Below are positions 36,761 to 54,079 of a DNA stretch of 64,000 nt, piece after piece (the stretch's first letter is position 1; each line of letters begins with the position of its first letter). Below the pieces are notes generated by a model. It made no database searches, was not told where the DNA came from, and saw only the letters and a list, made by a program, of their open reading frames with translations. This stretch comes from Desulfosudaceae bacterium (GTDB taxonomy: Bacteria > Desulfobacterota > Desulfobacteria > Desulfobacterales > Desulfosudaceae), in the NCBI GenBank assembly GCA_963674745.2, contig CAXXDV010000001.1:1-64000 (forward strand), read 5' to 3'. The position numbers and the translations under genes were made by a program.

Positions 36761-36791
36761 TGTCAACCCCTATTATTTGAAGGAGAGCACC

Positions 36792-37625: not shown

Positions 37626-37631
37626 ATAGAA

Positions 37632-37657
37632 GGGCTCCCACAGGGGGGTGCCCCTAC
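37632..37657. repeat. GTAG-type REP half unit
   Basis: GGGCTCCCACAGGGGGGTGCCCCTAC, matching the right half of 22314-22373. Confidence 0.8.
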
Positions 37658-37729
37658 GTGAATCCACGACGCGCATGATATTTTTTTTGCGACAGGAAAT
37701 AAATCACTAAATAAAATATGAGGTGAAAA

Positions 37730-38776
37730 ATGGAAAATTTTGCCCAATTTGCCATAGACAACCTGAAATTTTTTGGCGCATCCGAAGTGGGTGTTGTCAC
37801 CACCGAAACCATGGCCGGCGGACCACCTTCAGCCGACCTGACCTATCTCTGGCCCGACGCCAAATCAGCAATCGTTTTTACCGTACCGCTCAATCAGGAC
37901 CTGATCCCCGGTTTTTTAAAAAAAGAAGACCAGATCTCCCATGAGAAAGACAGTTTTCAAACCAACGTGATCGCGGGCGGCCTTTCCCTGTGGGCGGCCA
38001 ACTGGGCCAGGCAGCGGGGCTTTGAGGCCATGCCCTATGTACCCAACGACAGCTACCGGGCAGACACGCCCATGGGCGTACTGGACATGCAGCCGGAGAT
38101 TTCTTTGCGTTACCTGGCGGTGCGCGCGGGACTGGGCTGGTTCGGTTTTTCCGGCAACCTGATCACGCCCGATCATGGCGCGGCCGTAATCATCGGCTGC
38201 GTCCTGACCAGCGCGGAACTGGAGCCCACCGACCCGCTGCCGCCTGAAGACAATTATTGCGACAACTGCAAGCTCTGCATGGCCGCCTGCTCCTCGGGCC
38301 TGATGGATCCCGAGGAAAAGACAACCATTACCCTTGGCGGGGTTACCTTCGAGTATCCCAAACGGCGTTCCTATATGCGGTGCAATTACGTGTGCGGCGG
38401 TGTTTCCGGCCTGCATCCCTCAGGCAAATGGTCCACCTGGTCGCCCGGCCGGTTCCCGCTGCCGGAAGATGATCAGGGCTTTGCCGACGCCATGGTAAAA
38501 AATATCGGCGCCATGATCAACCGTCCGGATTCAGGCGGCGGATACGCCCACAGCCTGATCCCGGGTGGAAAAATACACCAGACCTGCGGTAATTGTCAGA
38601 TCATCTGCCACCCGGATAAAAACGTCCGCAAAGAACGGTTTGAAATGTTAAAAGCGGGTGGTGTGGTCGTGCAGCATGAGGACGGCCGCCTGGAAGCCAT
38701 GTCTCCGGAAGCGGCTGAAAAATTTACCGCTGATATGCCGGCAGACAGGAAAAAACTGTATTGCGAGGTTGTTTAA
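37730..38776 (+). CDS. QueG/reductive-dehalogenase-fold 2x[4Fe-4S] protein (putative cobamide-dependent reductase) 1
   Basis: AKSAIVF, SLRYLAVRAGLGWFGFSGNLITPDHG, VLTSAELEP, CDNCKLCMAAC, C..CGNCQIICHP; no TAT peptide. Confidence 0.78.
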   Translation: MENFAQFAIDNLKFFGASEVGVVTTETMAGGPPSADLTYLWPDAKSAIVFTVPLNQDLIPGFLKKEDQISHEKDSFQTNVIAGGLSLWAANWARQRGFEAMPYVPNDSYRADTPMGVLDMQPEISLRYLAVRAGLGWFGFSGNLITPDHGAAVIIGCVLTSAELEPTDPLPPEDNYCDNCKLCMAACSSGLMDPEEKTTITLGGVTFEYPKRRSYMRCNYVCGGVSGLHPSGKWSTWSPGRFPLPEDDQGFADAMVKNIGAMINRPDSGGGYAHSLIPGGKIHQTCGNCQIICHPDKNVRKERFEMLKAGGVVVQHEDGRLEAMSPEAAEKFTADMPADRKKLYCEVV

Positions 38777-38813
38777 CAGAAAACATTGCGTCCTGAACAC
38801 AGGAGAAAACAAC

Positions 38814-40193
38814 ATGGGTGCTTTAGAACAGAAAATTAAGGCCTTTGCCAAAAAACAGGGGGTGGCCATTGTCGGCATTGCCGGTCCGGACAGGCTTGAC
38901 GGGCCGCCGTCCCTTGACCCCACCTATACCATGAAAGGTGCCAGATCCATCGTATCGCTGGCGATTCCCATGGACACGGACGCGATCTACCAGTTTCTCG
39001 GCAAAAAATCCTACCAGCCGCACCTGACAGACCAGACCAGGCAAAACGCCCGGCTATACCGAATTGCCGCCTATATTGCCGGATACATTCAGTCGCTTGG
39101 GTACCGCGCCAGGGAAGTGCCTTCCAACAACTCATACCGGCGATCGCCTGACACTTTCGCGACCCACCCGAGTTTTTCCCACCGGTTCGGGGCCATTGCT
39201 TCCGGTATTGCCGCCCAGGGCTGGTCCGGCAATGTCATGACCGAAGAGTTCGGCGCGGCCATGTACCTGGGCACGGTCGTCACCGAGGCGGTCCTTGAAA
39301 GCGACAAGTCAAGATACGCGCCCCGCCACTTTATCGATGAATACTGCATCAAATGCCGAATGTGCGAAAAAACCTGCGTGGCCGGTATGTTTGAACCAAA
39401 AAACGAAGAGTATGTCCTTTTAAACGGCGAACTTCATCCGCGTGGCAAAAGGCGGAACATCGACCTGTGTAATGCCTCCTGTTTTGGTCTTCATTCCCTT
39501 TCCCGGGACAAAAAATGGACCACCTGGGGGACCCGGTGGATTGATGAATGGACAGAAAAAGAAGTCGACCCGGACCAAAAATTAAAATTGCGTTATACAT
39601 TGATGAAAGAAGGCGTTCTTTCCGGCGACTCCACCCCGAGGTACTCTTTGATCAGGCAGACCGCGGCGCTCCTGCAACCGGAAGAACTGATAGAAAGCCA
39701 TCTTGAAAGCGTCGCCCATGCTGGAAACGAAACCGAACGGTTCAAACGCCTGGGGCCGTTTATGGACAGATTGAATGTGGTCGGCAGAAAACTGCTCAAA
39801 AACGAGCGTATCCTGACCTGTGGCCAGTGCGCGCTGGTGTGCGGCCCGTCCATCGATGAATGCAGAAACCGGTATAACGCGCTTATGGAAGGGGGTTTTG
39901 TGGTTGATGGCCCCGATAATGAAGTAACAGTGGTCAAGACATATGAGGAAGCCTTAAAAATGCGGGCCCGTAATTCACCAAAAATCCCTTTAAAAGACCG
40001 GGTTAAAGATTTTATACTGTCCGGGGCCATGTGGCACGCCTACTACGGCGGTGTGGAGCCGAAATCCATGATCAGCGGTTTCGTTTATGACCGCAAGCTG
40101 AAAAAAGCCGTGACCGACCGCATAACCGGCCACTTTGATACATCGAAAAAGCGGCATGAAACAGCATCAGCGCTGGAGGACCTTGCCAATTAA
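38814..40193 (+). CDS. QueG/reductive-dehalogenase-fold 2x[4Fe-4S] protein 2, with C-terminal extension
   Basis: ARSIVSLA, SHRFGAIASGIAAQGWSGNVMTEEFG, VVTEAVLESD, CIKCRMCEKTC, C..CGQCALVC; AGGAG RBS. Confidence 0.78.
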   Translation: MGALEQKIKAFAKKQGVAIVGIAGPDRLDGPPSLDPTYTMKGARSIVSLAIPMDTDAIYQFLGKKSYQPHLTDQTRQNARLYRIAAYIAGYIQSLGYRAREVPSNNSYRRSPDTFATHPSFSHRFGAIASGIAAQGWSGNVMTEEFGAAMYLGTVVTEAVLESDKSRYAPRHFIDEYCIKCRMCEKTCVAGMFEPKNEEYVLLNGELHPRGKRRNIDLCNASCFGLHSLSRDKKWTTWGTRWIDEWTEKEVDPDQKLKLRYTLMKEGVLSGDSTPRYSLIRQTAALLQPEELIESHLESVAHAGNETERFKRLGPFMDRLNVVGRKLLKNERILTCGQCALVCGPSIDECRNRYNALMEGGFVVDGPDNEVTVVKTYEEALKMRARNSPKIPLKDRVKDFILSGAMWHAYYGGVEPKSMISGFVYDRKLKKAVTDRITGHFDTSKKRHETASALEDLAN

Positions 40194-40203
40194 AAAAAAT
40201 ATT

Positions 40204-40262
40204 GTAGGGGCGGCCACCCGTGGCCGCCCGATAGATGGGCCCCCACAGGGGGGTGCCCCTAC
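40204..40262. repeat. GTAG-type REP doublet
   Basis: GTAGGGGCGGCCACCCGTGGCCGCCC..GGGCCCCCACAGGGGGGTGCCCCTAC. Confidence 0.85.
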
Positions 40263-40313
40263 GTTAACACATGACCTGTGCCTGACCGGTATAGCCAAAC
40301 AAACGGAGCGTGT

Positions 40314-40832
40314 ATGAAAAAATCGAAAGATGAAATCCTGGATACGGCATTCAGTGCGGCCAAACAATACGAGATGAAAAGCGGTGGCTGCCCCCAGTGC
40401 ACGTTGGCGGGCATTTTCGATGCCCTGGAAATTGACAATGATGATATTTTCAAAGCCGCCACCGGTCTTGCCGATGGAATCGGCCTGTCCGGCAATGGTC
40501 ATTGCGGAGCGCTTTCCGGCGGCGTACTGGCCATCAGCTATCTTTTTGGAAGAGACAAAAAAGACTTTGGCGACATCATGAAACTGGTGGAAGCAAACCT
40601 TCTGGCCAAAAAACTGGTTGAGCGGTTTATGGAAAAATACGGGACCTGCCGGTGCGCCGACCTGCAGACCTCGTTTTTCGGTCGGTTTTTCAATCTGCTT
40701 GATCCGAATGATTTGCAGGCCGCCCTGGAAGCGGGCATGCTGGAAAGGTGCTCCTCACTGGTCGGGGAAGTCGCCCGGATGACCACCGAGATCATTCTTG
40801 AGGCACAGGAAAAAAAAGGAGTCCTCTCATGA
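40314..40832 (+). CDS. C-GCAxxG-C-C family putative redox protein
   Basis: GCPQC, GHCGALSGG, FMEKYGTCRC, ERCSSLV. Confidence 0.85.
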   Translation: MKKSKDEILDTAFSAAKQYEMKSGGCPQCTLAGIFDALEIDNDDIFKAATGLADGIGLSGNGHCGALSGGVLAISYLFGRDKKDFGDIMKLVEANLLAKKLVERFMEKYGTCRCADLQTSFFGRFFNLLDPNDLQAALEAGMLERCSSLVGEVARMTTEIILEAQEKKGVLS

Positions 40833-41929
40833 CAGAATCCGTTTATGTCAATCTCTGGAAAAAATTAAATGACGGCCCCCAGACCGCCCCGACGGATGCC
40901 AAAGGGAATCCCCAGCCTTCTTTTATAAAGCACCTTGAACTGTGCTACAGCCCGGAAGAGGCTGAACTGATTCAGCACATGGAACGCCCCGGGCGCTTTT
41001 TGTCGACTCAGGAGGTGGCTGATCGGGCCGGCAAAAAGCCTGAAGAGGTGGAAGCCATTTTGAGCGGCATTAATAAGAAAAACGGGCTTCTCGGGATGCC
41101 CGGTTTTTATTCACTTCCGCCCATGCCGATCATTTTTAATATCCACCAGTTCTATCCCGAAATAAAACCTGACGACCTTAAAGCCGCTGAACTTTATCAG
41201 GATTATTTCATCAAAGACAAATTTTACCGGTATTATGAAGGCTCTATGAAGGGGACACCGGTCTTTAGAACCATTCCTGTAGAAATGTCCATTGAGGCGG
41301 AACAGCGGGTATTGCCGGCCGAAGAAGCCCATGATTTTATCCTGAATCATGCGCCTGAAGAACTGGCGCTGGTTCCCTGCCCCTGCCGCACCCGCACGGA
41401 AAAAATGGGCATCCGTGAATGCAAAGACAAAAACCCGGTTGCCTCGTGTATCATGATGGGACCGGTAGCCCTTCATTTTGAAATGCTTGGCCTGGGCAAA
41501 CGGGTCACCCGCCGGGAAGCGGTCGCGTACTTTGATGAAATGCAGGAACTGGGTCTGGTGGGCCAGACAGACAATGCCTTGGCAGGTAACGCGATTATCT
41601 GCCTGTGCTGCGGCTGCTGTTGTTCCCAGTTGCGCGGCCGGACAAGATGGGGTAACATGTCTGCCATACTGCCGTCAAATTTTATTCCCGTGGCCGGGGA
41701 TGACTGTATACAATGCGGACTCTGTATGGAACGCTGCCCGTTCGGGGCCCTGGCCATGGATGAAGAGACCGAGCGCCCGGTTGTTTCGCCGGATAAATGC
41801 ATTGGCTGCGGCGTATGCACATTAACCTGTCCCCAGGAAACATTAAAATTGACCCGGCTTGAACGCTCCACACCTTTTAATACAGGAAAGGAAATGATTA
41901 AAACCATCGCCCTGGAAAACAGGGCATGA
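40829..41929 (+). CDS. Multi-Fe-S protein A (N-terminal HTH-like region, Cys-rich centre, 2x[4Fe-4S])
   Basis: CPCR..C..C, ICLCCGCCC, CIQCGLCMERCP, CIGCGVCTLTCP. Confidence 0.8.
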   Translation: MTESVYVNLWKKLNDGPQTAPTDAKGNPQPSFIKHLELCYSPEEAELIQHMERPGRFLSTQEVADRAGKKPEEVEAILSGINKKNGLLGMPGFYSLPPMPIIFNIHQFYPEIKPDDLKAAELYQDYFIKDKFYRYYEGSMKGTPVFRTIPVEMSIEAEQRVLPAEEAHDFILNHAPEELALVPCPCRTRTEKMGIRECKDKNPVASCIMMGPVALHFEMLGLGKRVTRREAVAYFDEMQELGLVGQTDNALAGNAIICLCCGCCCSQLRGRTRWGNMSAILPSNFIPVAGDDCIQCGLCMERCPFGALAMDEETERPVVSPDKCIGCGVCTLTCPQETLKLTRLERSTPFNTGKEMIKTIALENRA

Positions 41930-41951
41930 TACCCCTTAAAAGGAGAATAAA

Positions 41952-43019
41952 ATGGCAAGAGATATCTACAGAGAACTTCAGGAAAGGCTGGACCTTTTTT
42001 CCATTGGTTTTCCACCCGCGCCTTCCGGCGTGGAGATCACGATTTTAAAGCGACTGTTTTCAGAAGAAGACGCCGATCTCTTCCTTAAATTAACGCCCCT
42101 CCTGGAACCGGCTGAAAAGATAGCCGAGAATCTGGGATTGCCGGCAGAGGAGACCAAATCCAGGCTGGCGGACATGGCCGGCCGGGGCCTGCTGTTTTCC
42201 AAAACCAAGGGGGAGACAACGCTTTACGGGGCCACGCCATTTGTCCATGGGATCTTTGAATACCAGGTAAACCGGCTGGACAAGGAGCTGGCGGAATTAA
42301 TGAATCAATACGGCATGGAAGCTTTGGGCATTAACATGTTGCAGCACGGGGGCTCTTTTTTGCGGACCATTCCGGTAAATCAGGCCCTGGCCCCGGAAAA
42401 TCAGGTGGCCTCCTATGATGACGCCCGGGAAATTTTAAAAAGCAAACGCACTGTTGTGGTAACGGATTGTATCTGCCGTAAAAAACAGAACACGCTTGAC
42501 AAGGGCTGCGGCAAAGTCGTCGAGGCCTGCTTCATGTTTGATACCATGGCGGAATACTACCTGGCGCACGACCTGGGTCGCCAGGTCACCGTTGATGAGG
42601 CCATCAAAATCCTGGAAAAAGCCCGGGAACAGGGACTGGTTACCCAGCCGGCCACGGCCCAGAACCCTGACGGCATGTGCAATTGCTGCGGAGACTGTTG
42701 CGGCGTCCTTCAAGCCATTAATTTTCATCCCAAACCGTCAGAAATTGTCAGTTCCAATCATTATGCCGTTCTGGACCGTGATGCCTGCACCGGGTGCGAA
42801 ACCTGTATCGACCGGTGCCAGACCAACGCCCTGTCAATGGGTGAAGATGATCTGGCCGTCCTGAACCCGGACCGGTGCATCGGCTGCGGTCTGTGCGTTG
42901 TTACCTGCCCGTCTGAAGCCCTTACCCTTCAGACGAAATCAGCAGAAGACCAGTATCAGCTTCCCAAGGACGGCATGGAGCAGATGGTGGCATTGGCCCA
43001 GAAGCGGGGTGTTCTCTAA
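41952..43019 (+). CDS. Multi-Fe-S protein B, paralog of A
   Basis: CICR..C..C, MCNCCGDCC, CTGCETCIDRC, CIGCGLCVVTCP; both paralogs share RTIPV. Confidence 0.8.
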   Translation: MARDIYRELQERLDLFSIGFPPAPSGVEITILKRLFSEEDADLFLKLTPLLEPAEKIAENLGLPAEETKSRLADMAGRGLLFSKTKGETTLYGATPFVHGIFEYQVNRLDKELAELMNQYGMEALGINMLQHGGSFLRTIPVNQALAPENQVASYDDAREILKSKRTVVVTDCICRKKQNTLDKGCGKVVEACFMFDTMAEYYLAHDLGRQVTVDEAIKILEKAREQGLVTQPATAQNPDGMCNCCGDCCGVLQAINFHPKPSEIVSSNHYAVLDRDACTGCETCIDRCQTNALSMGEDDLAVLNPDRCIGCGLCVVTCPSEALTLQTKSAEDQYQLPKDGMEQMVALAQKRGVL

Positions 43020-43059
43020 CCGGCAAGGCCCAACAGCTCCCTGCGGAGACAGATGAACA

Positions 43060-44739
43060 ATGACGGTAAAAAACACAGACGTTCTGGTAATCGGTGCCGG
43101 TGGCGCCGGCATTTTTGCCGCTGTTAACGCATCCAAATCCGGGGCCGATGTTATCATTGTTTCCAAGGGACCGTCCGGTTACGGCGACACCCGCATATCG
43201 CTCGGCGCCATGTGCAAATCTCCTGATGGGTTACTTGATTCAAACAAAAAATTTGCCGGGGACATGATGGCCGGCGGCGGCTTCCTGAACAACGCCAGGC
43301 TCGTCAACATCCTCGTGGACGAAGCGACCGCTGCGGCCATTTCGCTGGAAAATTGCGGGCATATTTTTAAACGAAACCCTTCGGGAAAACTTGAAAACCC
43401 TTTCGGTAAATTCGGCGGTCACCGGTATAACCGTACGATCATAAGCCCGGCCTTTGGCGTTTCCATGGGCCAGGCAATGCGTTCAGGGCTGGCCAGATCA
43501 GGCGTTTCAGTACTTGAAGAAACGATATGCGCCGAGCTGATAGTCGCAGAAGGCGGCGTGGCCGGTGCTGTGGTTCTATGCATGAAGACCGGCGAAGTGG
43601 CGGCCATACTGGCAAAATCGGTCATTATGGCATCGGGCGGCGCCGGTGCCTTGTATTACCCCCATTCCGATTGCATGCCCTGCGTCACCGGCGACAGCTA
43701 CAGCCTTTCTCTGGGTGCCGGGGCCGAACTTGTCGATATGGAGCAGGTCCAGTTCCTTCCCTTTTCAATTACACATCCCAAATCCATGGAAGGGGTTATA
43801 TGCGGCGAGCATGCCATGGCAAGGCCTTTTGGCAAGCTTATTAACAACAAGGGAAAAGTTGTCCTGAAAAACTTTCATAATATGACCCGGGCGGAAGTTT
43901 CCAAAATAATGATCGAAGAAATCAAAAACGGCGGTGCTACCGAGCATGGCGGCCTTTTGTTTGACGTCAGCACAAATATGAAAATACCGGTATTGCGAAC
44001 CATATACAGAAATAAAATGAATGAAGCGGCCGCCCATTTTCTGGAAAACATTCGCAAAGCCTATGGCAAAGATGCCGCGGAATTCCGGGAGCCCTGGGAT
44101 GTCCTGCCCACGGCACACTACTTCATGGGCGGGATAATTACCGATGAATGCTGCCGGAGCCGTGTAGCAGGCCTGTATGCCTGCGGACAGGCCCAGGGCG
44201 GGGTAATGGGAGGGAACAGGCTGGGATCGACCTCTCTTACGGAGATTTTTGTTTTCGGCAAACGGGCGGGGATGACTGCCGCGAAAGAAGCGAACAGTCG
44301 CGGCCTCTGCAGCAAAGAGGCGGCGGCGGTTGCCGTGGAAAGGCTGAACAATCTTTTTGGCCGCAAAGGGAAAATCCCACCCATAAAATTAAAAAAACGA
44401 ATCCAGAAACTGATGTGGGCACATGCCGGTCCGCTGCGTGATGAGCAGGGACTCACTGCGGCTTACGATCTGCTGGCCGAAATCAAAAAGGACGCGGTGG
44501 ATCTGGGAACCGCTTCATTCAGGCGCTACAATACCCAGGTTGTTGATGCGATTGAGCTGTCGCACATGATCCCGGCGGCCGAGGCCATCATCATATCCGC
44601 GCTCGGGCGGAAAGAATCCCGGGGGGCCCATGTGCGGTCTGATTTCCCCGACACAAAAAAGACAATCACGCCCGGAAATGTTGTGGTGAGAAATATGGGC
44701 GGCAAACTTACGGCTGTTTTAAAAGAATCAACGTCATGA
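43060..44739 (+). CDS. Fumarate reductase/succinate dehydrogenase-family flavoprotein with atypical active site
   Basis: DVLVIGAGGAG, DMEQVQF, TAHYFMGG, GGNRLGSTSL, RKESRGAHVRSDFP; the covalent-FAD His motif is absent. Confidence 0.85.
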   Translation: MTVKNTDVLVIGAGGAGIFAAVNASKSGADVIIVSKGPSGYGDTRISLGAMCKSPDGLLDSNKKFAGDMMAGGGFLNNARLVNILVDEATAAAISLENCGHIFKRNPSGKLENPFGKFGGHRYNRTIISPAFGVSMGQAMRSGLARSGVSVLEETICAELIVAEGGVAGAVVLCMKTGEVAAILAKSVIMASGGAGALYYPHSDCMPCVTGDSYSLSLGAGAELVDMEQVQFLPFSITHPKSMEGVICGEHAMARPFGKLINNKGKVVLKNFHNMTRAEVSKIMIEEIKNGGATEHGGLLFDVSTNMKIPVLRTIYRNKMNEAAAHFLENIRKAYGKDAAEFREPWDVLPTAHYFMGGIITDECCRSRVAGLYACGQAQGGVMGGNRLGSTSLTEIFVFGKRAGMTAAKEANSRGLCSKEAAAVAVERLNNLFGRKGKIPPIKLKKRIQKLMWAHAGPLRDEQGLTAAYDLLAEIKKDAVDLGTASFRRYNTQVVDAIELSHMIPAAEAIIISALGRKESRGAHVRSDFPDTKKTITPGNVVVRNMGGKLTAVLKESTS

Positions 44740-45383
44740 ACATTACCATATCCATTCAGCGCTATAACCCGGAAACCGACGCCGGCCCAAAATGGGTCGA
44801 ATATTCCGTTCCCGCAGAAGAGGGGGCGACGGTGATGTCATGCCTCCAGCATATTTATGAAAATGACGATTCGACCCTGGCCTTCCGCCAGGGATGCCGG
44901 TTCCATTCCTGCGGGTTGTGCGCCCTGATGGTAAACGGAAAGCCGAAAATGGCCTGCGCCGCAAAAGCCAAAGATCAAATGAAAGTCGCCCCGCTTAAGG
45001 GGATGACCGTCGTTCGCGATCTGGTTACAGACAGAAGCGTTTTTTTCGAAAAGCTCCGCGAACTTGACATATTCATCCCCGAGCAGAAAGCGGCATCAAC
45101 TCCCGTAAAAATTTTTGAGCCAAAAGATCATGTGGATTTGTTAAAATGTCTGGAATGCCTGGCATGCAATGCCACTTGCCCCGAATTTGTCAGTAACAGC
45201 GATTCGTTTCCGGGGCCCTATATATTTGTCAAGCTGGCGCAACTGCATTTTGATCCGCGGGACGAAATCAACCGGAAACAACAGGCCGCCGAACTCGGTA
45301 TTCAAAAATGTGCTGATTGCAGTAAATGCACCTGCATAAACGGAATAGGAATTTACAAACAAGCGATTGATATACTGAAATGA
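44736..45383 (+). CDS. FrdB/SdhB-like iron-sulfur subunit
   Basis: CRFHSCGLC..C (2Fe-2S), VVRDLVTD, CLECLACNATCP, FPGP, CADCSKCTC. Confidence 0.85.
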   Translation: MNITISIQRYNPETDAGPKWVEYSVPAEEGATVMSCLQHIYENDDSTLAFRQGCRFHSCGLCALMVNGKPKMACAAKAKDQMKVAPLKGMTVVRDLVTDRSVFFEKLRELDIFIPEQKAASTPVKIFEPKDHVDLLKCLECLACNATCPEFVSNSDSFPGPYIFVKLAQLHFDPRDEINRKQQAAELGIQKCADCSKCTCINGIGIYKQAIDILK

Positions 45384-45415
45384 TTATTGTTCAACTTTCA
45401 TCATAAGGAGAACAC

Positions 45416-46444
45416 ATGGCCATTCGTCGTAAAATAAAAGACAGATACCGCCGGTTTCCTTATCTTTCAGATTTCGCGGGTATGAAAAGCGCCATCGGTG
45501 AAATGCGCGGGCTCGGCTTTCCCAAACAGCCGCCGCTGAATACGGCCTTATCGCCGCAGGACGACGTGCCGGTGCTTGACGAGCAATGGTTCATCGATGA
45601 AATAAAGCATAAAATCGCCACGCATCCTGAAAACTGCCTGGAGTTTCCCTATGCCACAGAACCCATATTCGATGAACCGCTGGTGGGGTTTGTCAGGGGC
45701 GATGATCCGATTTTTCAAAAGTTTAAATCCATCATCGGCCCTCACCATTATACACCCCAGGAAATCATGGCCTGGCAGGCGGAAAAAAACAATGTGCCCC
45801 CCCCGCCGGCCGAAGAGCTCTCGGTGGTCTCTTATGTCATGCCGATTACCCGGGCGACCAAACAGCAGAACGCCGAATGTACCGAATGGCCGGCAGAACG
45901 CTGGGCCCAGACCCGGTTGTCCGGCGAAATTTTCAGCCAGGAATTTACCCGGGAAATCGTTACCTTTCTGATGAACAAAGGGGTGCTGGCAATCGCACCT
46001 GATGTGACACCGTTGTTTAACAAAAAGCGCTACCCGGAGGTGGGCTGGGCCTCACCCTGGTCGCACCGGCACATTGCCTATGCCGCCGGCCTGGGCACCT
46101 TCGGCATGCACGATTTTCTGATTACGGAAAAAGGCTGCGCCCACCGGCTGGGCAGTTTCGTGGTCCACAAACCGCTTCAACCCAACCGGCAGCGACCTGA
46201 CGACATCCATGCCTATTGCCTTCAATACCAGGGAAAGCAGTGCCTCAAATGCGCCAGACGTTGTCCGGTCGGCGCCATCAGCAAAGAAAACGCCCATGAC
46301 AAGGAAAAATGCTATAAACATGTGGCCAGTTCGCTGAAGTACTGCCTGAAAAACTATCATATTTTCATTTACGGCTGCGGCATCTGCGCCACCAATGTCC
46401 CCTGTGAATCCGGGATTCCGGTTAAGAGGGAGACCGCAGGTTAA
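45416..46444 (+). CDS. QueG/reductive-dehalogenase-fold Fe-S protein 3 (distinct subfamily)
   Basis: WSHRHIAYAAGLGTFGMHDFLITEKGCAHRLGS, C..CLKCARRCPVGAI, C..CGICATNVPC. Confidence 0.75.
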   Translation: MAIRRKIKDRYRRFPYLSDFAGMKSAIGEMRGLGFPKQPPLNTALSPQDDVPVLDEQWFIDEIKHKIATHPENCLEFPYATEPIFDEPLVGFVRGDDPIFQKFKSIIGPHHYTPQEIMAWQAEKNNVPPPPAEELSVVSYVMPITRATKQQNAECTEWPAERWAQTRLSGEIFSQEFTREIVTFLMNKGVLAIAPDVTPLFNKKRYPEVGWASPWSHRHIAYAAGLGTFGMHDFLITEKGCAHRLGSFVVHKPLQPNRQRPDDIHAYCLQYQGKQCLKCARRCPVGAISKENAHDKEKCYKHVASSLKYCLKNYHIFIYGCGICATNVPCESGIPVKRETAG

Positions 46445-46490
46445 AAAAAACACCATTGCGCAACCAGCCTGTTATCAGGGTGACTACAAC

Positions 46491-47792
46491 ATGAACAGTA
46501 ACAGTGTGATCCCCGAACGTTTCCCCTCGGTGCTGATAGACCGGTTTGCCTGCGTCATGGAGCGCCATCTCGCTGACATGAAAATTCAGATGGAGATGGT
46601 ATTTGATCACAGGCTCGATCTGGACCGGCTGCAGCGGGCGTTTCGGCTTGCGCTGGATGCGGAACCTGTCCTCGGATGCCGTTTCGTGGACCGCCTACCA
46701 GAGTTGCACTGGCAAAGGCTGCCGCACATTGATCACGAACTCCTGGAACTGACAGATGACCTGGAGCGGTTCTCCGCCTTCCGTACACGTAAGATCAACC
46801 CGTTCGAAGGGCTACAGATTGAGGCGGCCGTTCTGCGTGAGGGAGAAGGTGACAGGCTTTTGATCAAATTAAGTCATCTGGTCGGAGATGCGGGCGGGAT
46901 TAAAGAAACTGTCGAATTGATTGCCGATATCTACAAAAGGCTGGAATACGATCCGGGTTATGTGCCCCGCTCAAACTGTTCAGGCAGCCGCTGTATGAGA
47001 CAGGTGGTCAAAAAGGTTCCCTGGCACGCTTACCCGCGAATACTCCGGAATGCCATGCAGGAATTGATATCCAACGGCCTGCCATCGACTACATTTGCCC
47101 TGCCGTCGCCAAATGGCCCTCGGGAAGGGCTTGATTACATTACAGTTGATTTACCAGATGAAAGGGTGGCCCGTATTGCTGCGTACAGCAGATCTTTCGG
47201 GGCCACTCTTAACGATATCCTCATAGCCGCGTTTTACAGGGCGGGAGTGGACACCGGGGAATGGGACGGCAGGAAGAAACTGAGGCTGATGACCACTGTC
47301 GATTTGAGACGCTGGTACATACCCGAGGGGCGGGGTGAGTCGATTGCCAACCTGAGCACGTTCGAGTTCGTAAATCTTGGACGGGATCTGGGGACCGATT
47401 TTGATGATACGCTGAAAAGAATTTCCCGTTTAACCGGCCGGAGGAAAAACAGCTGGATCGGTCTTAACATGAGTATTGTTCTCCCGGCACTTCTGGCATT
47501 ACCGCATGGCTGGCTCATGAAGGCACTTGAGAAAGTCGCTTCGGCGTTTATTATGAACGGAAAATTCATGCCGGCATTAACCAACATGGGGCCGATAGAA
47601 CCAGACCGGATACGTTTCGGGAAACCACCGCGACGGGCTTGGCTGCTGGCGCCGGCCCCTTATCCGCCAAATTTCGTTGCCGGAGTCACGGGCTATCGGG
47701 GGAGCCTGACACTCTCGGCCGGCGTCTACCCGGCAACAAGGAAAACGGCGGAAAAAATGTTCAAACGGATCCTTGACGAATTGCCGGAATAG
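46491..47792 (+). CDS. Stand-alone condensation-domain / CoA-dependent acyltransferase
   Basis: LDRLQRAF..EPVL, SHLVGDAGG (HxxxD), GATLNDIL, TVDLRR, LTNMG. Confidence 0.75.
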   Translation: MNSNSVIPERFPSVLIDRFACVMERHLADMKIQMEMVFDHRLDLDRLQRAFRLALDAEPVLGCRFVDRLPELHWQRLPHIDHELLELTDDLERFSAFRTRKINPFEGLQIEAAVLREGEGDRLLIKLSHLVGDAGGIKETVELIADIYKRLEYDPGYVPRSNCSGSRCMRQVVKKVPWHAYPRILRNAMQELISNGLPSTTFALPSPNGPREGLDYITVDLPDERVARIAAYSRSFGATLNDILIAAFYRAGVDTGEWDGRKKLRLMTTVDLRRWYIPEGRGESIANLSTFEFVNLGRDLGTDFDDTLKRISRLTGRRKNSWIGLNMSIVLPALLALPHGWLMKALEKVASAFIMNGKFMPALTNMGPIEPDRIRFGKPPRRAWLLAPAPYPPNFVAGVTGYRGSLTLSAGVYPATRKTAEKMFKRILDELPE

Positions 47793-47932
47793 ATCTTTTA
47801 ATAGTATATCATCCCGGTTACATCGAACGGGGCCGACTGCTTACTACCGCCTTTATAAGACTGTTCTAAAAAAAATAGCCCTGTTCAAAAGCAGATACAG
47901 CGGATATGTAACATATTGTTTATGGAAGGAAT

Positions 47933-48730
47933 ATGACAGCCATGATGCCGGTATTATTCATTTCTCACGGGCCGCCGACAATTTTACTGATGGACACGCC
48001 TGTCGTGGATTTTTTAAAGCGCCTTGGTGAGCAAACGCCGTCTCCAAGCGCAATCATTTGCATATCCGCCCATTGGGAAGCGGTTAAGCCCACTTTCAGT
48101 TCCGGTGCCCGAAACGGGATCATTCATGATTTCGGTGGGCCACCTCAATTGTTTGATCAAACATATTCAGCCCTGGGATCGCCTGAACTGGCGCATGAGG
48201 CGATTGACCTGCTGACTGCCGCCGGCATCAATGCAGAAGAAAATCCGAAAAGAGATCTGGATCACGGGGCCTGGGTGCCCCTCAAACTGATGTTCCCAAA
48301 GGCCGACATTCCTATTGTGCAGCTTTCTATTCAGACGGATAAGGATACATCCCACCATTTTGAACTCGGCAAAGCACTCCGGCCATTGCGTCAAAAAGGC
48401 GTACTTATTATCGGCAGCGGCGGGGCGGTGCATAATCTTTATGACATCCATGGGCATAAAATCGATGACGCCCCGGTCGCTTACGCGGCCGCATTTGACC
48501 GATGGCTTCGGGAAAAGTTGATCTTTGGACAGGTTGATGAATTGATCGATTATCAAAAATGTGGGCCTGAACCCGAACAGAGTCACCCGTTTCCCGCCGA
48601 ACACTTTCTGCCTCTGTTTGTCAGCCTGGGGGCCAGCCTGCCGGAAGAAAAAGCCACTTTGATTCATCAGGGATTCATGTATGGAACCCTTTCCATGGCA
48701 GCCTATCGGTGGTCGAACAAGGAGGCATAG
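47933..48730 (+). CDS. LigB/DODA-type extradiol dioxygenase (YgiD-like)
   Basis: FISHGPP, ISAHW, DHGAWVPL, GSGGAVHNL, HP..EHFLPL, HQGF. Confidence 0.88.
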   Translation: MTAMMPVLFISHGPPTILLMDTPVVDFLKRLGEQTPSPSAIICISAHWEAVKPTFSSGARNGIIHDFGGPPQLFDQTYSALGSPELAHEAIDLLTAAGINAEENPKRDLDHGAWVPLKLMFPKADIPIVQLSIQTDKDTSHHFELGKALRPLRQKGVLIIGSGGAVHNLYDIHGHKIDDAPVAYAAAFDRWLREKLIFGQVDELIDYQKCGPEPEQSHPFPAEHFLPLFVSLGASLPEEKATLIHQGFMYGTLSMAAYRWSNKEA

Positions 48731-48808
48731 GCACTGACTTGATAACACATTGGCGATACCATATGGTTTCAGGGAAAGAACATAACGGTACAAAAGGAGG
48801 AAACAGCC

Positions 48809-49489
48809 ATGCCTTGCGCAAGTTGCCAAACGCAAACCTGCTTCACCGGGTCGGGTGAAATGCCGGCCGAATGCCCGGAGAGATATCGGGAAGAAAACAG
48901 ACGGCAGGAACCGGAAAACCGGTTTATCGAATACGCGAAACAAATACGCGACAAAAATGCCGACCGCCTTGATGAATTCATCGAATATGCCCGTTTCATG
49001 GCTTACAAAAGAATCGGGCTGGCGGGTTGTATCGGTCTTCACGACGAGTTGAGGGTCATCAGCGGCCTGTTGCAAAAGGCCGGATTTACGGTGGCATCCG
49101 TGATGTGCAAGACCGGAAGCCTGAAGAAAAAATTTGTCGGGGTGCCGGCCAAAAATCGTATGACAACCCAAACGGGCTACAACATTGGGGTGATTGCCTG
49201 CAACCCCGTGGCCCAGGCGCTTATACTGAACAAGGAGAAAACCGAACTGAACGGCATCATCGGGTTGTGCGCGGGACACGATTCCGTATTCATGAAGCAT
49301 TCCACGGCACCGGTAATCACCCTTATCGCCAAAGACCGTTCAAACGGGCACAACCCGGCCTCCATCCTGTACAATTTCTACGGCGACAATTTTTTCGCAA
49401 GAAGGCCGAACCCGAAAGGCGCCTTCAAATTCAATGCCAGGCATATCCGGCCGATTGATATTGCAAGAATGATCAAAAGAAAAATATAA
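48809..49489 (+). CDS. DUF1847 family metal-binding protein 1
   Basis: CASC..C..CP, KRIGLAGCIGL, SVMCKTG, CNPVAQA, GLCAGHDS, LIAKDR..HNP. Confidence 0.8.
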   Translation: MPCASCQTQTCFTGSGEMPAECPERYREENRRQEPENRFIEYAKQIRDKNADRLDEFIEYARFMAYKRIGLAGCIGLHDELRVISGLLQKAGFTVASVMCKTGSLKKKFVGVPAKNRMTTQTGYNIGVIACNPVAQALILNKEKTELNGIIGLCAGHDSVFMKHSTAPVITLIAKDRSNGHNPASILYNFYGDNFFARRPNPKGAFKFNARHIRPIDIARMIKRKI

Positions 49490-49499
49490 GGAACCGACA

Positions 49500-50099
49500 A
49501 TGAAAATGGCTCAATGCGCGTCCTGCTTCGAACAATTGTGTGTCGGCGGGACAAAACAAACAAAAGATTACTGCCCTGCTCACCTTTATCCGGAGATATA
49601 TAAAGACGCCGAAAAAATCTATCAGGAGGATAAGGAAACACGGTTAATGGCCAGAAATGCCGCTGTAATGGAATCCCGGGGGTATATCCTCTGGCCCCGG
49701 CTCAAGGATATCATCGAGTTCTCCAGAGCCATGAACCACCAAAAGATAGTGGTTCTTTTCTGCCCGGACGTATGGAGAGAAGCAAAAAAGACCGGCCGGA
49801 TACTTTCGGAAAACGGTTTTATCGTCGCTTCGAGAGTATGCGGAATCGGCAAATCAAGCCCTCAGGCACCGGATGAATACGCAGCCGAGATCAACGCCTT
49901 ATCCTTCGACATTGCCGTCAATGCCGGGCTTTGCGGCCCTTTTGAAGCCCGGGTCGTAAACTTGTTGAAATTCCCTGTGTCGACGTTTATTGCCAGGGAT
50001 AAAAAATTGAACAACCATCCGGCTTCGGCGGTTTATTTCTCCGATAAATGGCGGGACTGGGCCAAAGAGGTCTACCGCGATAAACTGGGACTGAAATAA
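49500..50099 (+). CDS. DUF1847 family protein 2 (degenerate paralog)
   Basis: CASC..C..CP, RLKDIIEF, GLC, FIARDK..NHP; lacks CNP and GHD. Confidence 0.7.
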   Translation: MKMAQCASCFEQLCVGGTKQTKDYCPAHLYPEIYKDAEKIYQEDKETRLMARNAAVMESRGYILWPRLKDIIEFSRAMNHQKIVVLFCPDVWREAKKTGRILSENGFIVASRVCGIGKSSPQAPDEYAAEINALSFDIAVNAGLCGPFEARVVNLLKFPVSTFIARDKKLNNHPASAVYFSDKWRDWAKEVYRDKLGLK

Positions 50100-50180
50100 A
50101 CTGCCCTTGTTTTTTAATCAAAGGCCGCGTTGAACAATATGAACACGCATACGGATTTCAGCATATGGTTTTAAAAAAAT

Positions 50181-50214
50181 AAAAAAGGCCCCGCCATTGA
50201 GCACGGGGCCTTTT
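50181..50214. terminator. Bidirectional intrinsic terminator
   Basis: AAAAAAGGCCCCG..CGGGGCCTTTT between convergent genes. Confidence 0.8.
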
Positions 50215-50248
50215 AAATCCATATCACAACCTACAGCTTCTCTTCCGG

Positions 50249-51226
50249 TTATCCCTGCGCGTTTTTCTCCAGTTCATCCAGCTTTTCCGGCTCCGAAACC
50301 GTAATATCCACCAGCGCCTTGGGAATCGAGCTCTGCTCACACATCACCCGGATCTCCTTTTCCTGGTCGCTGAATTCCAGGATTTCACGTATGGACTCGA
50401 TGTACTCGAGCATCTTGTCTCCGGGGATATCTTCCAGCGCCGGCCCCTCTGCCTCGGCCTTCTTCCGCGCGGCTTCTTCTTCGGCCAGTCGCTGCTTTTC
50501 TTTGAGCTCCTCTTCCATGGCTTTTTGGGCGGCATCAATGGCATCCTGGCCTACCTGGGCCATATCGAAAATCAATTCTTGCGAAACGTTATTCTCGATA
50601 AGAAACTTGACCTTCTCCTCGTCGGATTTATCGGCTACCTTTTCAAGGAGATTTTGGACTCTCTTACGTTCGGCAAGCTCCTGCTTGATCATTTCTTTTA
50701 CCTGGGCCAGTTTCTCTTCAGTAATTTCCAGGGCACTGATGATATTTTTTTCTTTCACTTTTTCCGCAATAAGGTAACGAATACCCTCATCTCCGGACAT
50801 GGTTTTGGCTTTGGCAACCATCAGATCAAGCCGGGCCTTTTCCACCATTTTGATCACATCCGGCCGGCGGTGGGAACGCTTGATCTTCGGCCAGGTTGCG
50901 ACAAGGTCATCAAGAAGTTTTGTGGTCGCCGTGTAGGCAGCGGTCATATCCTCGAGCGTCAATGCCCCCAAAGCTTCGTTCAAATCTTTCAGCAGGGGCC
51001 GGCCGACGCTACGCATGTCACTGACAGCCCACCGCAATTCAAGCAGATTGCCTCCCAGGCGCGAAACATTGTAACCCGTCCCGTCAAGGTCAGCGGCCAT
51101 TCGCTGGATTGTTGCTTCCAGGTTTTCGGCTTCAACATCCTGAGCGTCAAGCTCAAGGATTTTTTCCTCAATCAACAGCCAGAGCGGTTTTTGCTCCATG
51201 GTTTCACTTGTCGTCATTGTTTCCAT
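50249..51226 (-). CDS. Hypothetical charged, helical protein
   Basis: 325 aa, E/K-rich; AAGGAG RBS. Confidence 0.75.
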   Translation of the reverse strand: METMTTSETMEQKPLWLLIEEKILELDAQDVEAENLEATIQRMAADLDGTGYNVSRLGGNLLELRWAVSDMRSVGRPLLKDLNEALGALTLEDMTAAYTATTKLLDDLVATWPKIKRSHRRPDVIKMVEKARLDLMVAKAKTMSGDEGIRYLIAEKVKEKNIISALEITEEKLAQVKEMIKQELAERKRVQNLLEKVADKSDEEKVKFLIENNVSQELIFDMAQVGQDAIDAAQKAMEEELKEKQRLAEEEAARKKAEAEGPALEDIPGDKMLEYIESIREILEFSDQEKEIRVMCEQSSIPKALVDITVSEPEKLDELEKNAQG

Positions 51227-51483
51227 CTCCTTTTTGATAATTTAAATCAATACCCCATACGCTCGATGGCTTTTTTATAACCATGTTTTTAAATCCACGC
51301 GGGGATAAAAAAATCAACCTCTTTTTTTACAAAGACTATAAAGAAGGGCTTCTGCGAGTCAATAAAAAAGCTCACGATCCGACCAATCCGAACCGGATAT
51401 TTCATGAATCGATCCTGGTGTTTGTGCCTGTAAAAATATCGTATCCAGGTAAAATCCGTTTTTGTGAAGAAGAATACGTGGTC

Positions 51484-51813
51484 TTATTTTTTAATCAGAG
51501 GCATTTTTAAGGTAATATGTGTCTCGTTTTGCCACGGCCACAGCATGGCAAGAACGATGTATTCGCCGAAATCTTTTAGATATAAGGCCTGGCCCTTTCT
51601 GACGCCGCCAAAGGCCTTTGATATTTCCAGGTGGTCTTCGGACGGGTCCGCATCAAAAGGGTTTACCACCGGGCCCAGAAACTCCGTAAGCAGGTTATCC
51701 CATTTTTCAAAATGGTTTTTAAAGAAAACAAGCTCCAGATAGTCCTCCATCAGATAACGTCTGTCAAAGACCTCGAGAGAATCGAATTGCACATATATGT
51801 CAGATAATTTCAT
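51484..51813 (-). CDS. Hypothetical protein
   Basis: 109 aa, natural-looking composition (FGGVRKGQALY..AMLWPWQ). Confidence 0.6.
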   Translation of the reverse strand: MKLSDIYVQFDSLEVFDRRYLMEDYLELVFFKNHFEKWDNLLTEFLGPVVNPFDADPSEDHLEISKAFGGVRKGQALYLKDFGEYIVLAMLWPWQNETHITLKMPLIKK

Positions 51814-52058
51814 AAAGGATATCCCGAATTACAGTTCTCAGTTCAATAAGTAGACTATAGCAGAATAACACTCAGGCTGATAAAAATCAATTTGGAATCG
51901 ACAGGGTGTGTTATCAAAGGCACGGATAAAACCAGGAATAACCGCCGGAGTAACATCCCGGTAAAGGTGATGGTTTGTGTTTTGACAAAATGGCTTAAGT
52001 ACAATAAAACATTCTTAAACATCATTATAATAAGCCGAATTAAAAGAACCGAAATAAC

Positions 52059-52217
52059 ATGGCACACAACACGATTAAATCGAGTTATTCAAAATTGGTG
52101 GCCAGGCTGAACCGGTTTCCCCAGGGCGCACCACCATCAGATTTGTTGTACACAATATTAAAAATGAAAGGGTTGCGGACCAGCCGGCATTGCGGCAAAA
52201 AAAAGGAAAAAGTATGA
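52059..52217 (+). pseudogene. N-terminal remnant of a multi-Fe-S protein of the 40829/41952 type
   Basis: MAHNTIKSSYSKLVARLNRFPQGAPPSDLLYTILK resembles IYRELQERLDLFSIGFPPAPSGVEITILK; then unrelated codons and a TGA overlapping the next ATG. Confidence 0.6.
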
Positions 52218-53062
52218 TAAATGCCCAAGCAGTAAAAGAAATGATTAAAGGTGAAGGTATTGACCTGGTGGGTATCGCGAATGCCGGGACCCTGATCCTG
52301 GCCTATCCGCCCCGGCCGGCCACAGGGCTGATGCCGACCGCCAAAAGCGTGATTGTCATGGCCGTAGCCCACAGCCTGGGCGCTGTGTATTCCCCGGACA
52401 TCATGCTCTGGACCCGCAGCAAAATGCAGACCTCGCGGATACTTGATCAGACGGCTGAAAAAGTCGGCCGATGGTTCGAGACAGAAGGATTTCTGACCCT
52501 GCCGGTTTCATCCGACAAGCCGGTTGAAATTCACAAAAGAGATCCGAGGACCGGAAAAAAATTTCCCCAGACAAAAGTGGTGGGCCATCTTTCCCACAAA
52601 CACGCGGCCGTCAGCTGCGGGATGGGGGAAATCGGGGCCAACAACCTCCTGCTGACGCCCGAGTTCGGCCCGCATCAGCGGCTGTGCGCCATTATCACCG
52701 AAGCCCCCCTGGATGCCGATCCGCCGCGGGAGTTGAATTTGTGCAAAAAATGCGGCAAGTGCGCCAAAGCCTGCCCGTCCGGCGCCTTAAAAGACGGTAA
52801 ATATGATGTCGACCCCTGCTTCAACTACTGGACCTATGGTTTCAAACGTCCCCTGCCCAGAAAACTGGGAGACATCCCGGGATTTTTAAAAATGCTGGCC
52901 AGCCACAACAAACACCGGGACATCCTGATTGAATCCGGCCAGTCCTATATTACGGATGTGGACAACTGCATCGAATGCATGCGGGCCTGCCCGGTGGGCA
53001 GTCACTGGAAAACCATCCGGCCGAAGCAGATGGCCCCCCAGAAATCCGGCGGAACAGACTGA
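52214..53062 (+). CDS. QueG/reductive-dehalogenase-fold 2x[4Fe-4S] protein 4
   Basis: DLVGIA, AKSVIVMA, SHKHAAVSCGMGEIGANNLLLTPEFGP, IITEAPLDAD, CKKCGKCAKACP, C..CIECMRACP. Confidence 0.78.
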   Translation: MINAQAVKEMIKGEGIDLVGIANAGTLILAYPPRPATGLMPTAKSVIVMAVAHSLGAVYSPDIMLWTRSKMQTSRILDQTAEKVGRWFETEGFLTLPVSSDKPVEIHKRDPRTGKKFPQTKVVGHLSHKHAAVSCGMGEIGANNLLLTPEFGPHQRLCAIITEAPLDADPPRELNLCKKCGKCAKACPSGALKDGKYDVDPCFNYWTYGFKRPLPRKLGDIPGFLKMLASHNKHRDILIESGQSYITDVDNCIECMRACPVGSHWKTIRPKQMAPQKSGGTD

Positions 53063-53101: not shown

Positions 53102-54079
53102 TCAGTTATTCAACGAGAAAATCTCAAATGCTTTTTTTTCATACCAGCATGAAAAAGGAACGCTGTTAATAAAACCGTTGTGGCCGCCGTACTTATGAAT
53201 GATAAGGTCGGTAATCTCATTTAACGTCAACCGGTGAAAATCGTCAATGGGTATGATGGGGTCATCCTCGGAAACGATCAGGGTAGTGGGAACCGGAATA
53301 TCCATTAAATAATCCCCGGTAACCCGGTAGCCATTAAGATATTCAAGGGTATCGCCATAATTGCTGTACCTTTCAAGCAGCAGATCCGTCAGTATTCTGA
53401 CTGACGGGGCTTTCAGCAAATCGTCAAAATGGTATAGATCCGGAAACAATTTTTCTTTTATCGCCAGGGAGCGCTTCCACTTTTTTAAAAAATACCCTCT
53501 TATCAGTTTATTGTTATCAATGACCGCTGTTGACGCGGCCGGATTGAGCCCGGGGCTGACGGCAATGATATGCTTTAAATTATCAATTTTCTCCGAGGCG
53601 CATCTTCTGGCGATACGGAGCGCGAAATTGCCGCCCAGAGAAAACCCGACAATAAAAGCCGGTTTGTTGTTTTCCATGGCCGCGGCCTGCTTGACCGAGT
53701 TGAAAACTTCATCAAGAATGATGGCAAAAAAGACACCCTCATTGAGATGGTGGCTTTCCCCATGGTCACGATAGTGAAGCCTGAAGATGGAGTAGCCCTT
53801 GCGGTACAAATATTTCCCGGTGCTTAAAATATAGGCTGAACGGGCGCTTCCTTCCCAGCCGTGAAGCAGGACAACAATTCCCAGGCATGGTTTTTCTGTC
53901 TGGCGCGACAAAAAGCCCTGCAGCCTTATGCCATTACCGGCCTCAAGGATGACCTCCTTTTCCGCTTTTACCATGGGGTTTTTGCCGAGGGTCCTGATCT
54001 TATTACTGGCCAGAACTGTCTGCAGATATCTGTTTTTCAAATATCCGGGAGGATTGAAGGTATAACTGTCATTTTTCAT
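53102..54079 (-). CDS. YheT-like alpha/beta hydrolase
   Basis: LHGWEGS, GFSLGG, EDDPII, GGHNGF. Confidence 0.88.
   Translation of the reverse strand: MKNDSYTFNPPGYLKNRYLQTVLASNKIRTLGKNPMVKAEKEVILEAGNGIRLQGFLSRQTEKPCLGIVVLLHGWEGSARSAYILSTGKYLYRKGYSIFRLHYRDHGESHHLNEGVFFAIILDEVFNSVKQAAAMENNKPAFIVGFSLGGNFALRIARRCASEKIDNLKHIIAVSPGLNPAASTAVIDNNKLIRGYFLKKWKRSLAIKEKLFPDLYHFDDLLKAPSVRILTDLLLERYSNYGDTLEYLNGYRVTGDYLMDIPVPTTLIVSEDDPIIPIDDFHRLTLNEITDLIIHKYGGHNGFINSVPFSCWYEKKAFEIFSLNN

Follow-up and report, generated by a model that had tools for sequence, protein, structure and literature searches.

Positions 1 to 64,000 of contig CAXXDV010000001.1 from a Desulfosudaceae bacterium (hereafter the window, meaning this whole stretch) encode four proteins, G1 to G4, that join a core resembling those of the epoxyqueuosine reductase QueG and the reductive dehalogenase RdhA to a ferredoxin-type set of cysteines. 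The reading we favor, with moderate confidence, is that they belong to the class III cobalamin superfamily (QueG, RdhA and, at a greater distance, CblC) as soluble proteins of the cytoplasm, are neither QueG nor canonical RdhA, and act as small-molecule corrinoid/Fe-S reductases. Their homology, fold, cysteine pattern, lack of QueG and RdhA hallmarks, family distribution and synteny are results of the analysis, whereas corrinoid binding, the electron path, the substrate class and the mode of regulation are inferred.

Four genes share a core and an eight-cysteine pattern

Exactly four open reading frames (ORFs) of the window, all on the plus strand, encode a core of the QueG/RdhA type and, behind it, eight cysteines arranged in the two-[4Fe-4S] pattern of QueG. 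G1 (37730-38776, +) is a protein of 348 amino acids (aa); G2 (38814-40193, +; 459 aa) represents the sister family of G1 and has an insert of ~90 aa and a long C-terminal tail. G3 (45416-46444, +; 342 aa) carries an N-terminal extension of ~130 aa and ends 12 residues past its last cysteine, and G4 (52214-53062, +; 282 aa) is the smallest of the four and forms a separate transcription unit. The starts of G2 at 38814 and of G4 at 52214 are consistent with where their homologues begin. BLASTP gave a significant result for each of the six pairs: 4e-35 for G1-G2 (26% identity; 1e-35 in a separate comparison), 1e-15 for G2-G4, 2e-14 for G1-G4, 1e-11 for G3-G4, and 1e-5 for both G1-G3 and G2-G3. A preliminary description, made from the letters alone, had placed four paralogs with two split 4Fe-4S motifs at these coordinates, and the ORFs, the cysteine pattern and the six significant pairs confirm it.

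To count such genes we scanned a core profile against every stop-to-stop ORF of the window with a length of 70 aa or more (374 in total). Only G1-G4 matched over the full length, a result that is partly circular because the profile was built with them. Five other ORFs matched at the ferredoxin cysteine motif only (E 6e-5 or weaker), and therefore four is the full count in the window.

The core pattern reads ISLRYLAVRAGLGWFG in G1, FSHRFGAIASGIAAQG in G2, WSHRHIAYAAGLGTFG in G3 and LSHKHAAVSCGMGEIG in G4. The consensus quoted in the preliminary description holds overall, with two exceptions: the His of its 'SH' element is present in G2-G4 but is Leu in G1, and its 'T+A+L' element is found in G1, G2 and G4 but not in G3, which deviates there. 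The PPSADLTY/PPSLDPTY and KWSTW/KWTTW stretches quoted for the first two proteins are indeed found in the G1/G2 translations. The first cysteine motif is CxxCxxCxxxC in G1, G2 and G4, and Cx7CxxCxxxC in G3; it is followed by a lone cysteine and then by a distal CxxCx3C (CxxCx5C in G3). In G1 the cluster cysteines are C177, C180, C183, C187, C218, C286, C289 and C293, with C222 as an additional one, and the counterparts of these eight in G2-G4 are conserved within each family.

Predicted fold and cofactor sites

G1-G4 share the QueG/reductive dehalogenase fold, in which a nitroreductase-like domain precedes a ferredoxin module, as seen in predicted structures (AlphaFold/AF2) of G1 and G3 and as assigned by sequence alone for G2 and G4. 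The G1 model, built from a 25-sequence alignment, has a predicted local distance difference test score (pLDDT) of 84.6 and a predicted template modeling score (pTM) of 0.87. Foldseek returned 47 PDB matches for it at E≤0.001, and every one listed is PceA, QueG, membrane reductive dehalogenase (RDH), NpRdhA or MMACHC. For the G3 model (pLDDT 73.2) there were 16 PDB matches at this threshold, all those listed being PceA; RDH, QueG and NpRdhA came next, and flavin nitroreductases appeared only at E ~0.08-0.12. PceA, together with RDH, gave the lowest E-values for both models. At the level of sequence, the PDB proteins matched past the ferredoxin cysteine motif are QueG (5d08, 5d6s), PceA (4uqu), RDH (8q4h) and NpRdhA (4ras, 6zxu), while ferredoxin-type proteins were matched over the cysteine motif alone, with single proteins and with family profiles. 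The best sequence match of G3 is 8q4h. In a phmmer search of the PDB, G4 matched 8q4h at 2.3e-11 (3.5e-13 with a profile) and the QueG 5d08 at 5.3e-11.

The residues expected around the redox centers are retained. The eight cysteines of G1-G4 align with the cluster ligands of B. subtilis QueG, given as Cys188/191/194/198/214/240/243/247 in the available part of PMC5175355. According to the same part, Arg141 of QueG lies 4 Å below the corrin and obstructs the lower axial site. Taking the chain numbering of 5d08 as native + 28 (anchored at Cys188, which is chain residue 216), chain residue R169 is Arg141, and the corresponding position is occupied by R127 in G1 and K129 in G4 (HMMER alignments) and by Arg in G2 and G3 (MAFFT). 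With this numbering we rejected an earlier assignment of the 'SH' His to QueG Asp134: the His falls at Asp140 and the next residue at Arg141. Within each family, conservation peaks in the core aligned to the cofactor domain.

G1-G4 lack the hallmarks of epoxyqueuosine reductases

The NCBIfam profiles that best match all four proteins are TIGR00276 (QueG) and TIGR02486 (RdhA), in both cases over a central stretch only. Scores against TIGR00276 were 44.9 bits for G1, 23.1 for G2, 36.0 for G3 and 54.1 for G4, so that all miss the 200-bit cut-off, and the matches to this 337-position profile lie within positions 130-223 for G1, G2 and G4 and 129-251 for G3. Pfam listed only 4Fe-4S motifs in G1-G4 at E≤0.1, with no match to PF08331 (QueG_DUF1730) at that threshold; E. 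coli K-12 QueG, used as a control, scored 85.7 bits for QueG_DUF1730 and 81 bits for Fer4_16. The D-Y-H motif, strictly conserved in the N-terminal domain of QueG according to an excerpt of PMC4646009, is replaced in the MAFFT alignment of G1-G4 by a gap or a non-matching stretch, while both QueG controls have it; the second of these, from L. curvatus, came from a plasmid search with G4. In the loop holding Asp134 in B. subtilis (Asp130 in S. thermophilus), which is variable and poorly aligned, G2-G4 have no in-register Asp and G1 has D118 nearby.

The C-terminal regions differ as well. The HEAT-like tRNA-binding domain of B. subtilis QueG spans residues 257-385 (PMC5175355, from the part available), and the alignment with the two QueGs shows no counterpart in G1-G4: 12 residues follow the last cluster cysteine in G3, 23 in G4, 55 in G1 and 116 in G2. 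G3 and G4 thus have no such domain (~125 aa), and in G1 and G2 its place is taken by tails that are unrelated to it and give no alignment. What G1-G4 do share with QueG (TIGR00276; 5D08, 5D6S) is the fold of the cofactor domain in Foldseek, the order of core and ferredoxin module, the eight-cysteine pattern, the basic residue at the Arg141 position and the lack of a signal peptide; what they lack is the PF08331/DUF1730 match, D-Y-H and the HEAT-like domain. The earlier claim that these are not true QueGs, for want of the D-Y-H motif, is therefore borne out by the alignment, the missing PF08331 domain and scores of 23-54 bits against 200.

The same evidence brings the proposal that G1-G4 are bona fide epoxyqueuosine reductases, as QueG isozymes, close to refutation, and we regard it as extremely improbable. 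It draws on TIGR00276 being the best NCBIfam match for all four and on the many homologues so named by JGI and NCBI, as the preliminary description had foreseen. Besides the low scores and the absence of DUF1730, D-Y-H and a recognizable HEAT-like domain, it has to face true QueGs that branch apart in the tree and G1 orthologues in Methanosarcina (see below). Since G1-G4 belong neither to QueG nor to RdhA, the database name 'epoxyqueuosine reductase' is probably wrong for them.

G1-G4 lack the hallmarks of respiratory RdhA

Against TIGR02486, G1 scored 24.2 bits, G2 23.2, G3 27.4 and G4 51.6, and all miss the cut-off of 160.35. No hydrophobic segment was found in any of the four with a 19-residue Kyte-Doolittle window (threshold ≥1.6), and none has a twin-arginine (Tat) leader, as judged by this hydrophobicity scan rather than by a dedicated Tat predictor. 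G3 contains two RR pairs (AIRRK, RYRRF) that are not followed by a hydrophobic h-region and that lie in helices of the model. Among ORFs of at least 40 aa between 35000 and 56500, no small ORF with several transmembrane segments, as expected of an RdhB-like anchor, adjoins G1-G4; the sole non-overlapping small hydrophobic ORF near them (51855-52067, -; 70 aa) has one hydrophobic segment. The hydrophobicity and small-ORF scans thus agree with the preliminary description, which had noted the lack of a twin-arginine leader and of an adjacent anchor, and with 23-52 bits against a 160-bit cut-off they uphold its view that these proteins are not respiratory RdhA.

Compared with known RdhA (TIGR02486; PceA 4UQU, membrane RDH 8Q4H, NpRdhA 4RAS/6ZY1), G1-G4 have the same fold and redox-chain layout but neither a Tat leader nor an RdhB anchor gene. 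They resemble the catabolic NpRdhA type in being soluble, and differ from the self-sufficient type in having no NAD(P)H reductase fusion. They are also much shorter, at 282-459 aa against a 464-aa chain in PceA and about 700 aa in NpRdhA. CblC/MMACHC also has the nitroreductase-like fold for base-off cobalamin and appears in the Foldseek list of G1 (9mrs, 4.9e-4), but the similarity is far weaker than to QueG or RdhA, and CblC has no ferredoxin module (PMC4646009, in the portion available).

A more specific alternative is that G1-G4 are cytoplasmic, catabolic-type reductive dehalogenases for natural organohalides, a role that has been proposed for short RdhA-like proteins of the 'simplified cytosolic' kind in Desulfobacterota and Chloroflexota. 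The accessible part of PMC12219181 describes short cytosolic RdhA-like proteins in Desulfobacterota (mean 395 aa) that lie beside beta-oxidation genes and IclR/MarR regulators; the comparison with G1-G4 is by description. The window too has beta-oxidation genes (30116-33719 and 54076-57414), RDH 8q4h is the best PDB sequence match of G4 and G3, and in Foldseek both G1 and G3 reach their lowest E-values with PceA. We nevertheless consider dehalogenation quite unlikely, given the TIGR02486 scores, the lack of any dehalogenase Pfam domain among those listed at E≤0.1, and the fact that the catalytic Tyr/Arg (or Lys) pair of RdhA was not located in any of the four.

Four old families rather than a local expansion

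Homologues of each gene are abundant. At E≤0.001 we found at least 1490 for G1 (52-90% identity among the 120 matches listed), with named members in Desulfobacteraceae, Dehalococcoidia, Thermodesulfobacteriota and Abyssobacteria; at least 3071 for G3 (67-90% among the 120 listed), including Desulfatibacillum aliphaticivorans; and at least 443 for G4 (69-88% among the 120 listed), including Smithella and Syntrophaceae. G2 yielded 618 representatives at the same threshold, few of them full length, the best full-length one at 49% identity. Where names are given, 'epoxyqueuosine reductase (QueG)' and '4Fe-4S binding protein' prevail, and the Atlas clusters for G3 are called 'putative epoxyqueuosine reductase' or '4Fe-4S'. 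Such naming can inflate the queuosine capacity deduced for Desulfobacterota, Dehalococcoidia and even archaeal genomes.

We placed the four proteins in a maximum likelihood tree of 64 rows (IQ-TREE quick mode, LG+G4), supported by the Shimodaira-Hasegawa-like approximate likelihood ratio test (SH-aLRT) only. QueG is its sole characterized reference, RdhA not being included, and the root was placed by choice on the two QueGs. One row, L029_G4like, is a read-through artefact of two separate ORFs, and another, L046_G4like, was dropped because it covered too few columns; the positions of G1-G4 and QueG are unaffected by either. A phylogeny with QueG had been proposed beforehand as a check, and in it the two QueGs stand on a branch of their own (SH-aLRT 97), separate from the other 62 rows. 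G1, G2, G3 and G4 each group within the clade of their own family (SH-aLRT 99-100). A larger clade unites the families of G1 and G2 (SH-aLRT 99); the preliminary description was right to see G1 and G2 as mutual closest relatives, but their identity is only 26%. G1-G4 are therefore four old, separately conserved and widespread families and not recent local duplicates: taken to mean a local expansion, the word 'paralogs' is contradicted by both the tree and the homologue counts.

Orthologues of G1 reach into archaea, at ~53% identity, in Methanosarcina (L071, L078, L054) and in other archaeal metagenome-assembled genomes (MAGs; L038, L057). Queuosine synthesis is not known from archaea, and these orthologues thus provide a further argument against a QueG role.

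Paired modules

Among the 150 best G2 representatives, 26 are long proteins of 725-836 aa (P0422, P0432, P0446, P0457, P0466 and 21 others). They consist of two tandem QueG-like modules, as seen by BLASTP against G1-G3 for all 26 and by Pfam for four; eight proteins in all went through the Pfam scan. Two sister clades of the tree hold their N and C halves, respectively, and suggest an ancient duplication or fusion within the protein. Tandem arrangements recur between separate genes as well: a second QueG-like gene lies in 19 of 79 loci with G1 relatives, in nine of them at most 200 bp from the G1 orthologue. Together, two-module proteins and recurrent tandem pairs make a hetero-oligomer of paired modules plausible on sequence grounds. 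It does not follow that G1 pairs with G2, and the closest locus counts against such a heterodimer, since no G2 follows G1 there.

This architecture also bears on the alternative that one or more of G1-G4 are corrinoid-free, serving as an Fe-S electron-transfer or scaffold subunit (compare the vestigial cobalamin domain of NpRdhA) or using another cofactor, for example flavin. Two-module proteins recall the pseudo-dimeric NpRdhA (PMC12219181, available part), the second QueG-like genes would fit a subunit role, and the fold is common to flavin nitroreductases, two of which are encoded nearby (55205-56212 and 57819-58616). All eight cluster cysteines and the Arg or Lys at the Arg141 position are kept in G1-G4, however, and family conservation is highest precisely in the core of the cofactor domain. 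In addition, no flavin nitroreductase is among the Foldseek matches listed for G1, and those of G3 rank below all B12 enzymes except CblC (5uos, E 0.22). On balance we judge a corrinoid-free member unlikely.

A working model for small-molecule reduction

The corrinoid/small-molecule reading is the most economical because it accommodates the fold, the intact ligands of the redox chain, the basic residue at the corrin site, the ferredoxin-like and flavoprotein neighbors and the local regulators. Low-potential electrons would enter at the distal cluster, probably from FerA and FerB, two ferredoxin-like proteins encoded between G2 and G3, or from other redox proteins of the island. They would then pass from the distal to the proximal cluster and on to a base-off corrinoid, whose Co(I) form would reduce a small organic substrate by elimination or substitution. 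The TetR gene adjoining the G1-G3 cluster suggests induction by a small molecule, and the varied neighbors of G1 relatives, among them a MarR gene in seven of 79 loci, fit the same reading.

Several observations weigh against this reading. TM-scores to solved enzymes are modest (query-normalized, 0.37-0.48 for G1 and 0.29-0.43 for G3), and sequence likeness to QueG and RdhA is limited to about 65-125 residues. The QueG of L. curvatus has Val at the Arg141 position, and the residue found there is therefore no strict marker. No sequence motif is diagnostic of cobalamin in class III enzymes (PMC4646009, as far as its available text goes), and no cobamide synthesis or uptake genes were seen in the 64-kb window. 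The high conservation of the G3 and G4 families could equally point to a housekeeping role, and the neighborhoods of G1 relatives vary widely across genomes and give no specific clue to a substrate.

More tentatively, G1-G4 may represent up to four undescribed class III B12 families, common among Desulfobacterota and, in the case of G1, also in Methanosarcina. They would form paired-module hetero-oligomers fed by the FerA/B family as a dedicated Cys-rich partner and catalyze reductions that are neither dehalogenation nor that of epoxyqueuosine, such as deoxygenating or dehydroxylating small metabolites. To our knowledge, dehalogenation and epoxyqueuosine reduction are the only reaction types established for class III B12 enzymes. 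A full-text literature search, with most subscription journals outside its coverage, found no paper on these families; the nearest was PMC12219181. Further uncharacterized B12/[4Fe-4S] families were expected by Payne et al. 2015 (PMC4646009, in the part available). With four candidate class III families in one locus, next to plausible electron-donor genes and a regulator, the window is a compact system in which the proteins could be expressed, their cofactors analyzed and substrates screened.

The gene cluster around G1-G3

G1-G3 belong to a co-directional cluster of 13.4 kb (36714-50099, +) with gaps of at most 140 bp. A TetR-family regulator (35984-36652, -; Pfam TetR_N 9.5e-10) lies divergently at its head, and the first gene of the cluster encodes a DUF169 protein (36714-37625, +; Pfam DUF169 4.2e-40). 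G2 is followed by a putative redox protein of the C_GCAxxG_C_C family (40278-40832, +; Pfam 6.9e-22; TIGR01909 52.3 bits, cut-off 47.4) and then by FerA (40829-41929, +; 366 aa), a likely electron carrier with a Cys-rich N-terminal part and a Pfam Fer4 match at residues 289-339 only. Its 355-aa paralog FerB (41952-43019, +) has Fer4 at residues 272-325, matches PDB proteins over the ferredoxin part only, and falls into Atlas clusters that are all '4Fe-4S dicluster' proteins. Both proteins (~360 aa) carry CPCR/CICR and CxCCGxCC-like cysteine motifs ahead of the 2x[4Fe-4S] domain, and their N-terminal 270 residues match no Pfam family.

Two further redox genes separate FerB from G3. The first encodes a TfrA/SdhA-like FAD flavoprotein (43060-44739, +; FAD_binding_2 1.3e-59; NF004900 TfrA 353 bits, below the cut-off of 718), the second a short, 215-aa SdhB/TfrB-like Fe-S subunit (44736-45383, +; TIGR00384 165 bits, cut-off 88) that aligns with positions 3-212 of the TfrB profile, which has 488. 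This pair (43060-45383) is not accompanied by a gene for a membrane anchor, and for this reason it looks like a soluble fumarate-reductase-like pair, to judge from the profile matches.

Downstream of G3 lies an ORF of 465 aa (46395-47792, +) without a Pfam or NCBIfam match; its true start is probably an internal Met, because the annotated start overlaps the end of G3. Its translation contains 'SHLVGDAGG', an HxxxD-like motif that may be an acyltransferase motif. Then come a LigB-family, 4,5-DOPA-dioxygenase-like protein (47933-48730, +; LigB 2.1e-39; NF007914 188 bits, cut-off 233) and, at the end of the cluster, two tandem DUF1847 genes (48809-49489 and 49500-50099, +; Pfam DUF1847 2.3e-41 and 3.6e-17). 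The strongest terminator-like hairpin of the region (50183-50214; 12 pairs, flanked by an A-run and a T-run) sits between the end of the cluster at 50099 and a convergent gene at 50249-51226. G4 lies 2 kb past the cluster as its own unit, beside hydrolase, MaoC, ferredoxin-nitroreductase and thiolase-like genes on the opposite strand. Two flavin-type nitroreductase genes (55205-56212 and 57819-58616, -), one of them with an N-terminal 2x[4Fe-4S] domain, encode proteins that share the superfold of the G1-G4 cofactor domain yet belong to a different family.

Gene neighborhoods of relatives in other genomes

A single-sequence query with G1 gave no relatives; an alignment query retrieved the 79 loci considered here, which derive from 235 confirmed matches, of which the best 80 were retained. 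Parts of the cluster are conserved in several of them. The order TetR-DUF169-G1 recurs in L001, L002 and L037, and other Desulfobacterota MAGs again bring orthologues of G1, G3 and G4 together: L002 reads TetR-DUF169-FerB...G1-FerA-G3-G4, L037 reads TetR-DUF169...G1-G3-G4, and L032 has more distant versions of G1, G3 and G4 together. G1-G4 pairs were found in L055 and L070. In the closest locus, L001 (73% identity), the GCAxxG gene follows G1 directly.

Members of the FerA/B family are the commonest neighbors of G1 (18 of the 79 loci), followed by enoyl-CoA hydratase and NMO genes (11 each), SDR, MarR and DUF169 genes (seven each), sulfatase, MBL and ferredoxin-nitroreductase genes (six each), TetR (five) and OYE (four). 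In a Desulfatibacillum MAG (L012:8066-19273), orthologues of G1 and G3 stand amid two sulfatase-type genes and DJ-1/PfpI, MBL-fold and radical SAM/SPASM genes, a context that possibly indicates a link to sulfated substrates.

In three of the archaeal loci, L038, L064 and L078, conserved housekeeping genes adjoin the G1 orthologue. L038 and L064 have an RFC small subunit and a small multidrug-export protein in common, and L064 and L078 share LigT, DacZ and DUF1614, with DUF1638 directly after G1 in L078. These shared neighbors suggest stable inheritance of G1 in these genomes.

Elsewhere in the window the context is that of an ordinary chromosome. A biotin-synthesis-type run at 2056-6148 comprises class III and class I/II aminotransferases, an AAA_26 (dethiobiotin-synthetase-like) gene and a radical SAM/BATS gene, and LarC-like (Ni_insertion) and AIRC-domain genes are found at 59915-61871.

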